Source: Moniliella sp. 'wahieum' (taxonomy: Eukaryota). Taken from it: 64,000 nt of DNA. Below, piece after piece: positions 28,640 to 60,200 of the stretch (its first letter is position 1; every line of letters starts with the position of its first letter). The position numbers were made by a program, and so were the translations under genes. The stretch is taken from NCBI GenBank assembly GCA_003971905.1, contig RSEE01000069.1, positions 248,001-312,000 on the forward strand, in the 5' to 3' direction. The notes beneath the pieces are model-generated. The model was not told where the DNA came from. It did no database searches and worked only from the letters and a program-made list of their open reading frames with translations.

Positions 28640-31240
28640 CGAAGCGTGAAGCTTGAAGCTTCGAGGGTGCTTATGGCCGACGTCCGTACGTCCGTACTCA
28701 GTACCTGTATTCAATGCGTCCACCGCAAGAGTGAGCGTGCATATTGATATTGAATATTGATTCCAGCGCCTAAACGGCGGCGGCAGTGCCTAGTAGTGCC
28801 TAGTGCTTGGGCTGCGCCTGGCTGGCGCCGTGCCGTGGGGAGCGGAGCTGCGTGTTGCTTGGCGCTGAAGCATGACGCATGACCAGCGATCGATGATCGC
28901 CAGTAGGAAGTGCCATGGGCCCACCAGTGCACCCGCGGAGTGCTGGCCTCCGTGCAGCAGCCCTTGGGCAGTGCTCCAGTCCCGCCCGATCACCGATCCA
29001 ATGATCGAAGGGATTGGCAGTGCTGCGCCGTGCCGCGTGGCGCGTGACTGGGCGGTGGCACAGGTGATGTGTGACGGCGTCGAGTGACTGGCTAGCTGAC
29101 GAGACTAGACTGGTGATCAACTCGTGCTCGAAGTGATCTGCGAGGGATCGGCGCCGTCGCCTGAGTGCTCGCCTGCGCTCGCTCCCAGTTGGGCGCTGGA
29201 AGCTGCGAGTTCAGCCGAGGCCGCAACGCAACCAGCCGCCACAGGGCTTGGCACACCGCAGCCTGCGCCATACATACTGCCCTCCCGGTCCCATCGATCG
29301 ACTGGCGAGCCATGCACATCCATCCTCTGCCCTCGCGGGCCTTGGGCCTTGGGCCTTGGGCCCCGCTATCAGGGACTGGGCCTCAGTCGCCACCAACTTG
29401 GCGAACCGAACGAACACAGCAGACCGGACGCTCAGGCCCTGATCGGCCTGATCCCCGCCCCGCAGACATCTGCTGTGACCAAAAACAGGTGTCGGCTAAG
29501 GCTCGGATGCGATATCTGAGATCGGTCAGATCCATGCCGGTGAGCGCGGCACACTGAGTTGGCTGGTACTGAATCGAATGCATCGTGAGCATGAGCTCTC
29601 GGATCTCGGGCTGGCATCAAATTGATCTCGATCAGAGCTGAACAACATAGGCTCGCGTCAAGCAATCAGGCACTCGCCCAGTCTAGTCAACCAACATCCG
29701 ACCGGTGTAGCCTGGTTTAATAATGTTTAACGTTTAATGTTTACCAGTTACCGGTATGCCGGCGCTTTCCTGCGCCCTCCCGCACCACGGCCCCTCCTCT
29801 CCCCGCATATGGAACAGCCGCCGCGAGCACAACCCCTAGCGCAATTATTTGTTTAATCACGCGTCACGCGTCACGTGTGACCGTCACCTGTCACGCATGT
29901 CACATGTCACACGGTATCCCATCGACAGAAGCGTCTTTCAACACCAGGTGCCTGTTGCAAACGCAGCATCTTCCTATTCGCCCTCGGCGTGTCAGCTGAC
30001 CCAGACTTAATCCTTGCCCGGCCCTTCGCCTCGGTTTCGCTCGGTGATTGGCTTGGGCCCATGCCAGTGCCCAGCCAGGACGGCGGAGGCCGACAACTTG
30101 TAACCCCTTCACATGGTTCGCACCCTCGCAGCCGTGTGATGCAGATGCACCTGAGCTTGCTGACGCTGAGATCATCATCATCATCATGCATCTGCATCAT
30201 TCATCCTCGACCATCGAACAGAGTTGATTCATTCAACGTATTCAACGTTCAATACGTTACAAGTTTTTTACGTGTTACGCGTTAATCGAATCGTTAACGT
30301 ACTCTTTGACGTTCACCACGTTCACCGAACGTTCAACGTGTTCAACACATCCGATAATCGATTAACTGCCGAAGACGCAGATCCTCTTTCTACCAAATGC
30401 AATGCCATTATGTTGAACCGCCGGTAGCCGGTAACCGGTAACCGGTAACCCCCAACTCTTCAACAAAAGCCATAGAACCCCTTTGCGCTTGTGGCATGCA
30501 CATATGGTACGCCCTGGCACGCCCAGCTCCTCCGCTTCTCGCTGCAATAGTCCTCTCTAAGATCGGACAAGGATTGATTCTTGCATGTCTCTCTTATGAA
30601 CTCTTGGTGCGTCGATTGTATATGACCTGGGCGCGACTGGGCGTAAAACACATTTACCAGGGCTGGGAGAATCGAGGATAGCAAACAACAGAGAGGATCG
30701 TGTTCTTGAGAGCTGGAGGGCATGGATGAGATCGATGACCGTAATATTAATAGGCAATCGTCTGTTCAACACGGTTTCAACGTTCAACGTACGGGGGGTT
30801 GCCGGTTGGTGCGTATACGGGTGTGCATCCACTTAGGGCCGACCCTCTGCGGTTGTAGACGAGCACGTGAGCGTTCGGGCGTGAGTCGCGTGAATCGTGC
30901 GTATTGAGTACTTGAGTGGGTCGTGGCGCGTGAAGCTTGAAGCTTGTTGAAGAGCTTGAAGCTAGCTCTTGAATTCAAGCTTCAAGCTTCAAGCTTCAAG
31001 CTTAAGCCTGAAGGCCATGAAACCATGGCACCCTTCAAGCTTCAAAGCTCGTACTCGGGGAGTTATCCTGTTTTGTTTTTCCACACCACGCATTAGGCAC
31101 TGGACATCTGAGATCTGAGCATCTGAGCGCACTGCCGATCCTGTCGCAGGGAACCCGGCACAGGCCCAGTCTCACGTCCTTTCTTCGTTGTTCCGTCACA
31201 TGTCACATGTCACATGTCACATGTCACATGTCACAGGCTA
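28640..31240. repeat. Non-coding island of 7-bp-period palindromic arrays (TNA + 4-bp palindrome)
   Basis: (TCACGCG)2 ~29857, (TAACCGG)2+ 30432, (TCAAGCT)4 30975-31002, (TCACATG)5 31196-31230, and TCAACGT units at 30232-30345. Confidence 0.85.
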
Positions 31241-57569: not shown

Positions 57570-60200
57570 GCCGGTGCTCGGTGCTCGGTGCTCAATGTGC
57601 TCGGTAACCGGTAACCGGTAACCGATAACCGGAAGGCAGGTGCGTGCGGCCGGTGGCCGATAGGTGGGGACTGGACAGGGCTAGTAGACGCTTGTCCGAC
57701 TAAGGTCCCCGGCGCTCGGTGCCGAGTAACTGGTAACTAGTGACTAATAGCTTCAAGCTTAAACGTTAAACTAGCACTGCGACACTGGGCCACCGGCATG
57801 TCTCGGCATCATCGACGGAAAACGCCACTGCTTGGGATGGTTTCTGTAGATGATTGAGATGATTGGTGGTGGATACTCGAAAATCGGACCCCTACCGAGG
57901 CCTCCACAGATCCACCTTCGACCTGCCTCATTGTCACGTGCCAGACTAGAAGCGGCCACGCACCATGCCATGTGCCATCACATGCATGTGACTGATAGGG
58001 TGTGAAATCCAGGAAACGTCCATGTGCAAACCCTAACCGTATCCACTGCCCTGGTGCTTCAAGCGTCCATCCTGTGCTGCGATCGGTGGTCTCAGGTCCG
58101 AGACAGGCGTCTGGGATCTAGAGCCTATGCCACTTGTCACACTCAGGTCTCAGAGCTTGTCCTCCCTTGGTACCTTGGTGGCCAGGGTGCTTGGCACGTT
58201 ACGGTGTCAAGCACCAGTGGTGCTCAGCTGGTCCCTGTTGGCCCACGACGCCAAGCACAGCACAGCGATCGGTGTATCGCGCATGCTGTACAGTGCTGCA
58301 TAGTACGTCATCCGTCGCCATGCATCATGCACGTCATGCGCCCTCTGTGCGCCCGAGCTCCACGAGTACCACACGCTCCAGGGTGTGATCCCGCTGTTAC
58401 ATGTTATCGATTATCGATGTCATCTATCAACGGCAACCGCCGAAGTCCAAAATCCCCGTGTAGCCTGGTATAGCCTTGTGCAGCACATTTCACACCGAAG
58501 ATGGCGGCGGTAAAGCCGATTAGCCTGGAAAGGAGAATCCGCAGGAGCTGGGGATGCAGCTGCGGGGCAAGCAAAGGGAGCAGAGTACCGACAGAAATGC
58601 GGGACTGGAAAAGGGCGAAGCGGATCAGAGTTACCTCTTGTTGCTCAATATAATTCGGTACCCTGTTCAATACGTTCAGTGCGCGAAGTACTTGTGTAGT
58701 CTAAACCTAAATTCACACGACGTTTTATTACTTAGTTTCTACTAGCTCGATCGCCTGCTCTCGACTCTCGCTTGTGCAGACGCTCGCTTCTTTTTTGGTG
58801 CGGATGATTAATGATTGATCCGTCGTTGTCACCACAATCAGTACGACTTGGTGCACGCTACGTCAGCGTGTCAGCTGTTTTGTGTGAGGGCACCGTGCGG
58901 AGTGATCTAGTGACCGGATCGACCATCGGGCGCAGCATCGACATCGACCATCGCCTGTGTCTCCAAACTCAAGTACTCAAGCTTCAAGCTTCAAGCTCTT
59001 CAAGCTCTTCAAGCTTCAAGGCTATATAGATTGGCTTTTCAAATTTCAGGTTTCTTCAATGGATCATCGATCGCATGTCACACACCCGAATTTGACGATC
59101 GAGGGGCGGAGTGACGATAGTGACTATAACGCGCGAGGCTAGTGACTAGTGACTAGTGGCTATACATAGCGGCTAAGCGCTAAAATGAGAACCGTTGAAC
59201 TTCAACACGTTGAGAGCGTGACGTGAGTGATGCAAGGGCTAGCGCCACCAGACTCCACCGCGTGTGGCGAAGAGCGAGAGCTGTGCGAGGACGTGGTGGG
59301 AGCAGGATGGTGGCATAGAAGGGAACAGACTATAGCACAGATGGTGACATGCGTCTTCAAGTCCAGCTTCAAGCTTCAAGAGCTTCAAGGTTCAGGATTA
59401 TACGAAAGAGCGCGTCAAAGCGTCAACTTGTTTAACGTTTAACGTTTAACGTACTCAGTACTCAAACAACGAAACTCAAACTCAAGCTTCAAGACTCAAC
59501 AGTCCAAAAACGTTCAACGCGTCGAAGGAACCGAGATCAATTGGAAGCCTCGGCCTGAGGTCACCGGTCAGGCCGGTCAGGCCGGTCACCGGTCACAGGT
59601 CAAGCCGGTCAGGCTCTGGCCTCAGCCTGAGGCCTGAGGGAATTTCTCCCCCCACACATCACATCACGCGCCACACTTCCAGCGGAACCTTGCCCAGGCA
59701 GGATAGGGCACACTAGTACCATTGTTCGGACCTGTCCGAAAAGCGTAGGCCATACGGCATGTGACATGTGAACAAGAGGCGACAAAGTGACATGTGACAG
59801 TGACAGACGGCAGCACGTACCTGCCTCATACCCAGACTTCCCGGAGGGTACGGAACTCGGTACTTCAATGTCATACGTCACATGTCACATGATGCATGAC
59901 AAGTCACATCTCCCTCAGCGCTTCTATGCCATGTAGCAAGGAAGGTGTGTGAACGTTGTGAATAACGCGCATGCGAACACAACCGCTGCATACTGCCAAA
60001 CATGTTGATGTGATGCTTTGAAGAGAGTGGTACGCACGACAGCAGGAAACTTGGGAACTCAGGCGGAGTCCCCACCCTCTCAGGCAGAGCGCTGAATGAA
60101 CTCTCAGGGACCCAGTGACTGTGCTGGAGTATCTCGGTATCGGCCGTACCGCGTTCCCAGCCTGAAGTGCTCGTGCTCAGCTGGAGCGGTCTCGGCCTCA
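57570..60200. repeat. Non-coding island of 7-bp-period palindromic arrays
   Basis: (TAACCGG)n 57605-57632, TCAAGCT units 58977-59020, (TGACTAG)2 59143-59156, (TTAACGT)3 59432-59452, TCACCGG/TCAGGCC units 59560-59640, TGACATG units ~59760-59890. Confidence 0.85.

Follow-up and report, generated by a model that had tools for sequence, protein, structure and literature searches.

Probable transposon-excision scars centred on T-N-A form a family of heptamer arrays 5' of genes in a basidiomycete contig

We analysed a 64,000-nucleotide stretch of contig RSEE01000069.1 from Moniliella sp. 'wahieum' (hereafter the window), which carries many short tandem heptamer arrays built around the trinucleotide T-N-A (TNA). 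A Pfam scan of its open reading frames (ORFs) identified the window as eukaryotic, with interrupted ORFs as well as a Copia polyprotein, NOG1 and a tRNA-splicing endonuclease. The interrupted ORFs encode thioredoxin-domain, Dus, dynamin, eRF3/HBS1-like, M24 peptidase, NOG1, Ras-family, FAD-oxidase, GH28, dihydroxy-acid dehydratase, nucleoside hydrolase, tRNA-splicing endonuclease and C2H2 zinc-finger proteins. The host is a basidiomycete fungus, the best named matches of a NOG1 exon being basidiomycete; this exon is at most 67% identical to any database protein, and Tilletiaria, Ceraceosorus, Pseudozyma and other Ustilaginomycotina rank first. Scans of the window for tRNA genes and Rfam families gave no matches.

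A Copia-type long terminal repeat (LTR) retrotransposon occupies positions 41269-46673 on the minus strand, with RVT_2, rve and Pol_BBD domains in a 1130-codon ORF. Its LTRs differ solely by a 1-bp indel, and the 5-bp duplication TTATC flanks it at 41264-41268 and 46674-46678. The element is very young and landed inside one of the heptamer arrays, which is therefore older than the insertion that splits it. A 24-bp tandem repeat (3.8 copies, 95% matches) lies at 43425-43515, within the Copia ORF region. A search of the window for long dispersed or inverted repeats turned up nothing beyond the Copia LTRs and one further repeat; the heptamer arrays are thus not portions of a longer element.

A first-pass annotation of this DNA had described, over 28640-60200, a family of arrays in which each unit is TNA followed by any 4-bp palindrome. 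Every array that it cited exists, located where it had been placed or a few bases off. Period 7 contributes 60 exact tandem arrays of two or more copies to the window, of which 52 begin after base 28600; the counts for periods 6, 8 and 9 are 56, 10 and 16. TNA plus a 4-bp palindrome fits, in some rotation, 40 of these 60 arrays (chance about 2.7%). In the region 28601-60200, the 10-mer TNA-pal4-TNA, in which pal4 is a 4-bp palindrome, was counted 96 times against 4.6±2.2 in 100 dinucleotide shuffles. The pattern is specific for TNA: the remaining 15 X-N-Z flanks were observed 3-16 times against 4.5-12.2 in shuffled sequence, and none of them is enriched, the equally symmetric ANT, CNG and GNC included. 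Non-palindromic TNA-N4-TNA is barely enriched (86 vs 71.9±8.5 shuffled). Both N are identical in 93 of 108 TNA-pal4-TNA, and some three quarters of the N are C or G. Where at least 11 of the 16 possible palindromic cores had been claimed, 15 are found, TATA alone being unused. The pattern is also present before 28640, more sparsely (for example, at 9195, 15511 and 19923). As for the remark that every TNA is a stop codon on one strand, so that three units close all three frames, its arithmetic is true and nothing here points to it mattering.

The TNA-palindrome grammar is a by-product of another structure, namely a 7-bp direct repeat centred on TNA, abTNAcd, joined by a filler that is the inverted complement of the adjoining repeat end. 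'TNA plus palindrome' is not, as had been proposed, the elementary unit; in its place we find the 7-bp TNA-centred repeat with 1-3 nt of palindromic filler, or with two bases replaced, and period-8 and period-9 arrays are therefore accounted for as well. We wrote each palindromic chain as (TNA pal4)k TNA and counted its extensions into the left and right flanks (l,r). Among the 75 chains of the window, the edges are (0,2) in 9, (2,0) in 10, (1,1) in 2, (0,0) in 3 and (2,2) in 2. One edge thus coincides exactly with TNA and the other with the centre of the palindrome, and the two mirror forms are equally frequent, as is expected for a symmetric 7-bp target that keeps one hairpin overhang. Because the extension is by two bases on one side, the palindrome is not free: its first half is local flank and its second half is the inverted copy of that flank. 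Most frequent among the palindromic forms is the 12-mer TNAcd·d'c'·TNAcd, whose flanks are unrelated on either side; 43 of the 75 chains do not reach two full units (<14 nt), and their edges are phased. Structures consisting of a 5-mer, its last two bases inverted and the same 5-mer again start with TNA in 114 of 146 cases (both strands).

The same rule governs repeats that lie a few bases apart. The motif 'TNA pal4 NN TNA' is a direct repeat pair of abTNAcd with d'c' between its members, both outer flanks matching this 7+2+7 model in 19 of 50 cases (both strands; chance about 0.4%). The window contains 20 TNA-centred 7-mer repeats spaced by 2 nt, and the spacer is the inverted complement of the adjoining repeat end in 18 of them, with 12.5% expected by chance; the source of the filler is the left repeat in 12, the right in 7 and both in 1. 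At other spacings, the rule is followed by 7 of 8 fillers of 1 nt, by the single filler of 3 nt (1/1) and by none of three of 4 nt (0/3). Non-palindromic 7-mers among the spaced repeats keep it in 10 of 12 cases (a hand count from scan rows), which makes the filler rule independent of the palindromic arrays; several of these scars, as we call the individual structures, measure exactly 16 nt and lie between unrelated flanks. Where a non-palindromic 7-mer is plainly doubled, the phase is again TNA-centred, as with GCTCAGG x2 at 40353 and ATTGAGC x2 at 56948. In TNAcd-NN-TNAcd (n=150), the filler is rc(cd), the reverse complement of cd, in 114 and rc(TN) in 4, all 4 being cases in which both fillers coincide; since the filler is never independently rc(TN), a 7-bp TNA-centred target fits and a 5-bp target does not. 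The pooled target logo reads S-N-T-S-A-N-S, with G/C at 72% in the outer positions and C/G at 87% in the centre.

Altogether the window holds 108 scars (75 palindromic chains, 18+7+1 spaced repeats and 7 plain doublings), or about 1.7 per kb, compared with 2.4 per dinucleotide-shuffled window. Direct repeats of a TNA-centred 7-mer whose copies are 0-3 nt apart (the 7 plain and 7+18+1 spaced ones) occur at most 0.1 times per shuffle. The scars are dense at 29-32, 38-41 and 58-60 kb, reaching 19 per kb, with smaller groups at 35.0-35.5, 46.7-47.5 and 51.4 kb. They are concentrated 5' of genes: wherever Pfam matches give orientation, the scar islands are found either on the 5' side of a gene or in the interval between two divergent ones. 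Islands of the latter kind separate eRF3/HBS1-like (-) from M24 peptidase (+) at 9.2-9.4 kb, Ras (-) from FAD-oxidase (+) at 15.5 kb, and GH28 (-) from the dehydratase (+) at 19.5-19.9 kb, while the endonuclease gene (35.0-35.5 kb) and the zinc-finger ORF (57.6-59.9 kb) each have an island on their 5' side. Two stop-to-stop frames of 758 and 510 codons, at 35661-37934 (-) and 51710-53239 (+), match no Pfam family above threshold; scar islands lie at the 5' side of both.

In the account of individual loci that follows, dots set off the filler and the number after a bracket gives the copies. The first scar island begins at 28647-28760 with (TGAAGCT)2.1 (28647-28661) and (TGAATAT)2 (28747-28760). 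Beyond it lie the spaced scar CCTGATC.GG.CCTGATC at 29438-29453, a run of exactly 16 nt in which the first two bases of the repeat, inverted and complemented, give the 2-nt filler, then (TCACGCG)2.7 adjoining (TCACATG)2.3 at 29857-29911, and the spaced scars ATTCAAC.GT.ATTCAAC, GTTCACC.AC.GTTCACC and GTTCAAC.GT.GTTCAAC at 30231-30346. At 30420-30450, (TAACCGG)3.3 (30428-30450) has a TAG variant unit ahead of it, and at 30931-31045 (TGAAGCT) arrays change to (TCAAGCT)4.3 (30974-31003) over a GAATTC centre, with extra AG/AGCT fillers. (TGAGATC)2 and the 1-nt-filler scar TCTGAGC.A.TCTGAGC occupy 31106-31128. The longest array, (TCACATG)5.9 at 31195-31235, terminates after TCA+CA, a boundary that the model predicts.

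Directly 5' of the tRNA-splicing endonuclease gene (-), the interval 35044-35519 contains the 12-mer TCATC.GA.TCATC (35044) and (TGAGATC)2.7 (35501-35519). The endonuclease ORF itself (33479-34915, minus strand, 478 residues) has both tRNA-intron endonuclease Pfam domains in its last approximately 130 residues and a long N-terminal part without a match. A GATG/GATTGATT tandem tract with periods 4, 8 and 12, not of the scar type, lies just 5' of this gene at 35206-35247.

In the next dense island, 38553-38590 holds the 12-mer TGATC.GA.TGATC, then TCAAGCT and then the spaced scar CTTCAGT.AC.CTTCAGT. Several (TGAAGCT) arrays and the 12-mer TGAAG.CT.TGAAG (39131) follow at 39009-39185, and GTTGAAC.GT.GTTGAAC, (TGATCGA)2.6 and GATGATC.TC.GATGATC at 39846-39911. 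At 40017-40075, (TGATCGA)3.9 (40017-40043) adjoins (TTACGCG)3.1 (40048-40069). The 1-nt-filler scars GGTCACG.C.GGTCACG, GCTGACC.C.GCTGACC and GCTCAGG.C.GCTCAGG are found together with the plain GCTCAGG GCTCAGG at 40172-40366, and (TTAGGCC), (TTACGCG) and (TGAGGCC)2.9 (40804-40823) arrays with TTG variants, plus more single scars, at 40489-40855. The left half of the TAATCGA/TTATCGA array split by the Copia insertion lies at 41250-41268; its right half, GATAATC.TC.GATAATC and (TAATCGA)2.3, lies at 46674-46701. Beyond the latter, GGTCATG.CA.GGTCATG and then (TCATGCA)2 (46905-46918) occupy 46894-46918. On the 5' side of the 510-codon ORF (+), TGACTAG, TGACA.TG.TGACA, TGTCACA.TG.TGTCACA, a period-8 run of (GTCAAGCT) and (TCAAGCT)2.1 are located at 51401-51530.

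Towards the end of the region, ATTGAGC.AT.ATTGAGC and the plain doubling ATTGAGC ATTGAGC, a non-palindromic 7-mer, lie at 56939-56961, and (TAACCGG)3.3 (57602-57624) is found with TAACTAG/TGACTAG, TCAAGCT and TTAAACG units at 57602-57771. ACTCAAG.T.ACTCAAG, (TCAAGCT)3 and CTTCAAG.CT.CTTCAAG, the last occurring twice (period 9), are located at 58967-59020; (TGACTAG)2.9 (59139-59158) and the 12-mer GC.TAA.GCGC.TAA at 59139-59183; (TCAAGCT), CTTCAAG.AG.CTTCAAG, (TTAACGT)3.3 (59430-59452), (TCAGTAC)2 (59451-59464) and the 12-mer TCAAG.CT.TCAAG at 59365-59499. GGTCACC and GGTCAGG.CC.GGTCAGG arrays with (TGAGGCC)2.1 (59559-59639), and (TGACATG) and (TCACATG) units with the 12-mer CA.TGA.TGCA.TGA (59758-59899), follow. 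Five further loci lie outside the range of the first-pass annotation: (TGATGCA)2.1 and G.TCA.CGCG.TCA at 9195-9448, between the divergent eRF3/HBS1-like (-) and M24 peptidase (+) genes; (TGAAGCT)2 and TGAACGT units at 15511-15551, between the divergent Ras-family (-) and FAD-oxidase (+) genes; CGG.TGA.CCGG.TGA and (TGAAGCT)2.9 at 19547-19942, between GH28 (-) and dihydroxy-acid dehydratase (+); the 1-nt-filler scar CATCAGC.G.CATCAGC at 22037-22053; and the sole 3-nt-filler scar, AATCATG.CAT.AATCATG, at 26237-26253.

As control DNA we used metagenome contigs picked by (TSAAGCT)3TSA (121 loci, 708 kb). With one exception the scars are absent from it. The grammar with a core other than AGCT was found in 30 of 1212 control period-7 runs of at least 12 nt (2.5%, equal to chance) versus 57 of 190 in the window. 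For control TNA-centred 7-mers spaced by 2 nt, 21 of 38 raw rows are of the palindromic-filler (P) type; these rows list one 9-copy array twice (L029 and L030 overlap), and by locus the figure, which is a reading of the rows, is about 3 of 18, the chance level. The exception is a 37.6-kb contig (L042) with a helicase ORF 85% identical to a Lactarius protein. Its arrays include (TGAGATC)2.9, (TAACCGG)2.9 and several of (TGAAGCT), it has one spaced scar of the P type, and the edge forms match those of the window. Judging from this one contig, a Russulales fungus appears to bear the same scars at a lower density, which we take as a lead. Three tandem copies of an AAA_11 helicase gene, about 6 kb apart, are found at L042:1-20024.

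We consider that the arrays are probably the accumulated excision footprints of one cut-and-paste DNA transposon, or of a family of them. A direct duplication of fixed length around a symmetric motif points to staggered target cleavage during transposon integration, and a junction that carries the last flank bases again in inverted form points to P-nucleotides from a flank hairpin nicked off-centre; we infer from this a transposon as the break-maker, the hairpin chemistry and the iteration. Both copies of the target duplication are kept at the empty site (7 plain, 7+18+1 spaced), and the inserted bases are the inverted complement of the flank end (18/20, 7/8 and 1/1), as in a footprint of this kind. 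The 12-mer class fits a 2-nt loss at the other flank, though its flank composition differs from that of the spaced class. The first-pass annotation had suggested, as one of two alternatives, that a cut directed by TNA led to fold-back or hairpin repair and then re-duplication; this is essentially borne out by the flank duplication around TNA and the inverted copy of the adjacent bases, once the elementary unit is corrected. It knew of no described system that matches, yet the P-nucleotide excision footprints of flank-hairpin transposons match the chemistry, as far as the accessible parts of the sources describe it (PMC5873905, PMC5499845).

In the mechanism that we propose, the element would insert at S-N-T-S-A-N-S sites centred on T-N-A and duplicate a 7-bp target. 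Its excision would leave covalently closed hairpins on the flanking DNA, as with hAT, Mutator-like, Transib and RAG, and host repair would open the hairpin about 2 nt off its tip, so that a flank end cd would become the 4-nt palindrome cd·d'c'. Joining could then have several outcomes. If both 7-mers were retained, abTNAcd·d'c'·abTNAcd with period 9 would result; a filler of 1 nt would give period 8 and one of 3 nt period 10; if the other flank dropped its two end bases, ab·TNAcd·d'c'·TNAcd would be formed, which is the period-7 'TNA plus palindrome' form; and the 7-mer might also be plainly doubled. The period-7 product would contain a perfectly symmetric 7-mer, d'c'TNAcd, which would again be a target. 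On a repeat visit, the 4-nt overhangs of the two opened hairpins would be complementary to each other, and units would be added in register to give short arrays, with replication slippage probably contributing to their growth. The symmetric 7-mer with its complementary overhangs would explain why palindromic units, and not others, grow into arrays.

Several other ways of building the scars were considered and rejected. A 3-bp TNA duplication with 2+2 transposon-end bases, as in Tc1/Tc4-like elements, is at odds with a (0,0) class of 3/75 and the use of 15 cores, and a 5-bp duplication with 2 P-nucleotides cannot yield the 7+2+7 class, P-nucleotides never being found at the TNA end. A symmetric 5-bp target x'TNAx was dismissed on a (1,1) class of 2/75, a 7-bp duplication of already palindromic targets on a (2,2) class of 2/75, and a 1-nt P-nucleotide with 1-nt loss on showing no excess.

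A number of observations weigh against transposon excision. The agent is one that we infer wholly: the 64-kb window yielded no transposon that combines terminal inverted repeats with a matching target-site duplication (TSD), and Pfam detected no transposase domain in its 97 ORFs save in the Copia polyprotein. The element scans covered terminal inverted repeats with 2-9 bp duplications and elements between identical TNA-centred 7-mers, and otherwise returned array self-matches only; one candidate, 8437-13433, matches at 12 of 14 bases, but it encloses housekeeping genes and was taken as chance. A density of up to 19 scars per kb far exceeds any that we know of for footprints. The canonical hAT target has 8 bp, nTnnnnAn, and is not what we see here, the repeat having 7 bp, of which the third is T and the fifth A. 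By hand count, G/C occupies the unconstrained outer flank position in 8 of 19 12-mers vs 44 of 52 spaced 7-mers, which a single-target model does not predict. TNA-containing period-9 runs measure 18 nt in 9 cases and 16 nt in 5, and a single event predicts 16. Junctions with both palindromic overhangs kept number 0, and TNATNA is not enriched (27 vs 21.9). The narrow outcome spectrum is tolerated by the model and not predicted by it. Finally, non-TNA heptamer arrays occur, namely (GGGCCTT)3.7 at 29337-29362, where TTG replaces TNA, and (CGGTGCT)3.1 at 57572-57593, which has neither TNA nor palindrome; since such arrays exist, slippage acts as well.

Other explanations were weighed as well. That 108 scars, concentrated 5' of genes and of very narrow outcome spectrum, occur in 64 kb with no transposon or transposase found there would suit a hairpin-forming nuclease without a mobile element, be it a domesticated transposase or another break-repair route, that cuts TNA-centred sites in open promoter DNA and leaves the same host hairpin-opening and end-joining steps to write the scars. 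We judge it unlikely: a 7-bp target duplication needs either insertion between staggered nicks or fill-in of a 7-nt stagger, a hairpin at a simple cut adds palindromes but duplicates no target, and we know of no such nuclease, although no search aimed at one was made. It is very unlikely that the arrays are ordinary microsatellites made by replication slippage, with near-self-complementary heptamers folding into hairpins and T-N-A reflecting a loop or stacking preference. Arrays do reach 5.9 copies, TTG variants have spread within arrays, and (GGGCCTT)3.7 and (CGGTGCT)3.1 show slippage operating. Slippage microsatellites would, however, have at least two units, edges in any phase and no unit rule; here 40 of 60 arrays obey one rule, and 43 of 75 chains fall short of two full units with phased edges (19 at (0,2)/(2,0) vs 2 at (1,1)). 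The inverted-filler rule is moreover kept by non-palindromic 7-mers in runs of exactly 16 nt, the self-complementary flanks ANT, CNG and GNC are not enriched, and (TSAAGCT)n contigs of other organisms lack other cores.

The position of the scars 5' of genes and between divergent genes would also suit selected cis-regulatory or structural promoter elements, a double-dyad code needed by a protein or by DNA structure, which the first-pass annotation had offered as an origin. We consider this very unlikely as an origin, given that 15 of 16 cores are used, that the local flank is in every case the template of the core and that 'any palindrome' is nothing a protein can read; the same repair logic extends to the non-palindromic, period-8 and period-9 classes, with the same filler rule in 10 of 12 non-palindromic 7-mers, and the strands are used equally (9 vs 10). 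Some scars may nevertheless have been co-opted later. An assembly or sequencing artefact is extremely unlikely, as the events are sequence-specific, confined to non-coding 5' regions and spread over more than 40 different 7-mers, one array is split by a Copia insertion bearing its own 5-bp duplication, and the Lactarius-like contig, from an unrelated assembly, has the same scars.

Transposon excision, the reading that we prefer, has close parallels in known systems, Ac/Ds among them. Excision footprints are normally rare single events detected by genetics. In budding yeast, plants and Candida albicans, Ac/Ds leaves either short deletions or palindromic insertions of P-nucleotides that arise by hairpin resolution, the insertions being mostly 1-3 nt on either side of the junction, according to the accessible part of PMC5873905. 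Our scars resemble them in the duplication kept at the empty site, the flank-templated palindromic inserts, mostly of 1-3 nt, and possibly the short deletions on either side; they differ in the 7-bp T-N-A-centred duplication, the narrow outcomes, the density of about 1.7 scars per kb stacked in arrays and the lack of any element in the window. hAT, Transib and Mutator-like (MULE) transposases and RAG make hairpins on flanking DNA that host enzymes open (PMC5499845, in part). With the P-nucleotides of V(D)J coding joints and with Transib/MULE hairpins, our scars share off-centre opening by the host and a short palindrome at the untrimmed end, commonly one-sided (same source, in part), whereas V(D)J joining has no target-site duplication and Transib duplicates 5 bp, against 7 bp here.

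Basidiomycete elements with a 7-bp TSD include hAT7 in Pucciniales and Kyakuja in Agaricomycotina, Russulales among them (PMC12730594, in part). The likeness to our scars consists in TSD length and host. hAT7 belongs to a superfamily with hairpin-on-flank chemistry, and the reported hosts of Kyakuja include Russulales, to which the Lactarius-like contig also belongs; the accessible part of that source reports neither from smut-related fungi. Tc4 has the target CTNAG and duplicates TNA (bioRxiv 10.1101/2023.11.06.565293, in part). It shares with our scars an interrupted-palindrome target centred on T-N-A; unlike its 3-bp duplication, the direct repeat here is 7 bp, with 15 cores in use and a (0,0) class of 3/75, which sets the scars apart from Tc4-like events. 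Footprints of Tc1/mariner elements derive from the transposon ends. Galileo, of the P superfamily, has a 7-bp TSD with the near-palindromic consensus GTAGTAC (PMC2775673, in part). Its nearly palindromic 7-bp target duplication is like ours; its centre, A-G-T, and its animal host are not. To our knowledge, P-element excision does not use flank hairpins. Bacterial heptamer arrays, such as cyanobacterial STRR and Xanthomonas GGGAATC (PMC4692102, in part), are likewise of period 7, intergenic and often in inverted pairs. Unlike the arrays described here, whose host is not bacterial, they are prokaryotic and lack the TNA-palindrome rule and the flank-templated filler.

A full-text search of a limited library found no description of such arrays in fungi. 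The chemistry is already known; the TNA-centred 7-bp target, the density and the stacking into a rule-based heptamer family appear to be undescribed in that library. If our interpretation is true, footprints make up a visible share of promoter DNA, with 108 scars in 64 kb, and one repair rule yields a whole 'family' of microsatellites, by which period-7 dominance and the palindromic look would be explained. If confirmed, the scars would offer a sequence-only read-out of a transposon target (S-N-T-S-A-N-S, 7 bp) and of the host hairpin-opening offset (2 nt), would indicate a very active element and would provide a natural system for footprint-driven promoter reshaping. A bolder version, which we hold as tentative and rather doubtful, is that the promoters of this fungus are constantly being rewritten by a still active transposase system that forms hairpins and has a new TNA-centred 7-bp target, representing an undescribed transposon lineage or a domesticated enzyme. 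Were this so, each visit would add 7-9 bp and recreate its own target, the scars would be the main source of new microsatellites and promoter turnover in this lineage, and some arrays would have turned into working promoter elements. Simple-repeat surveys limited to units of at most 6 nt would overlook heptamer scar arrays.

Two further features of the window deserve mention. Dispersed repeat copies at 47943-48874 and 63650-63978, the second of which exceeds the window, are 80-88% identical over matching blocks; the divergence of the aligned pair is too high to reveal indels. A long CTGTTG/CTG repeat at 28028-28214 sits in a 458-codon stop-to-stop frame without a Pfam match, with G-rich tracts after it at 28428-28503; on the minus strand, its CAACAG would encode polyglutamine.

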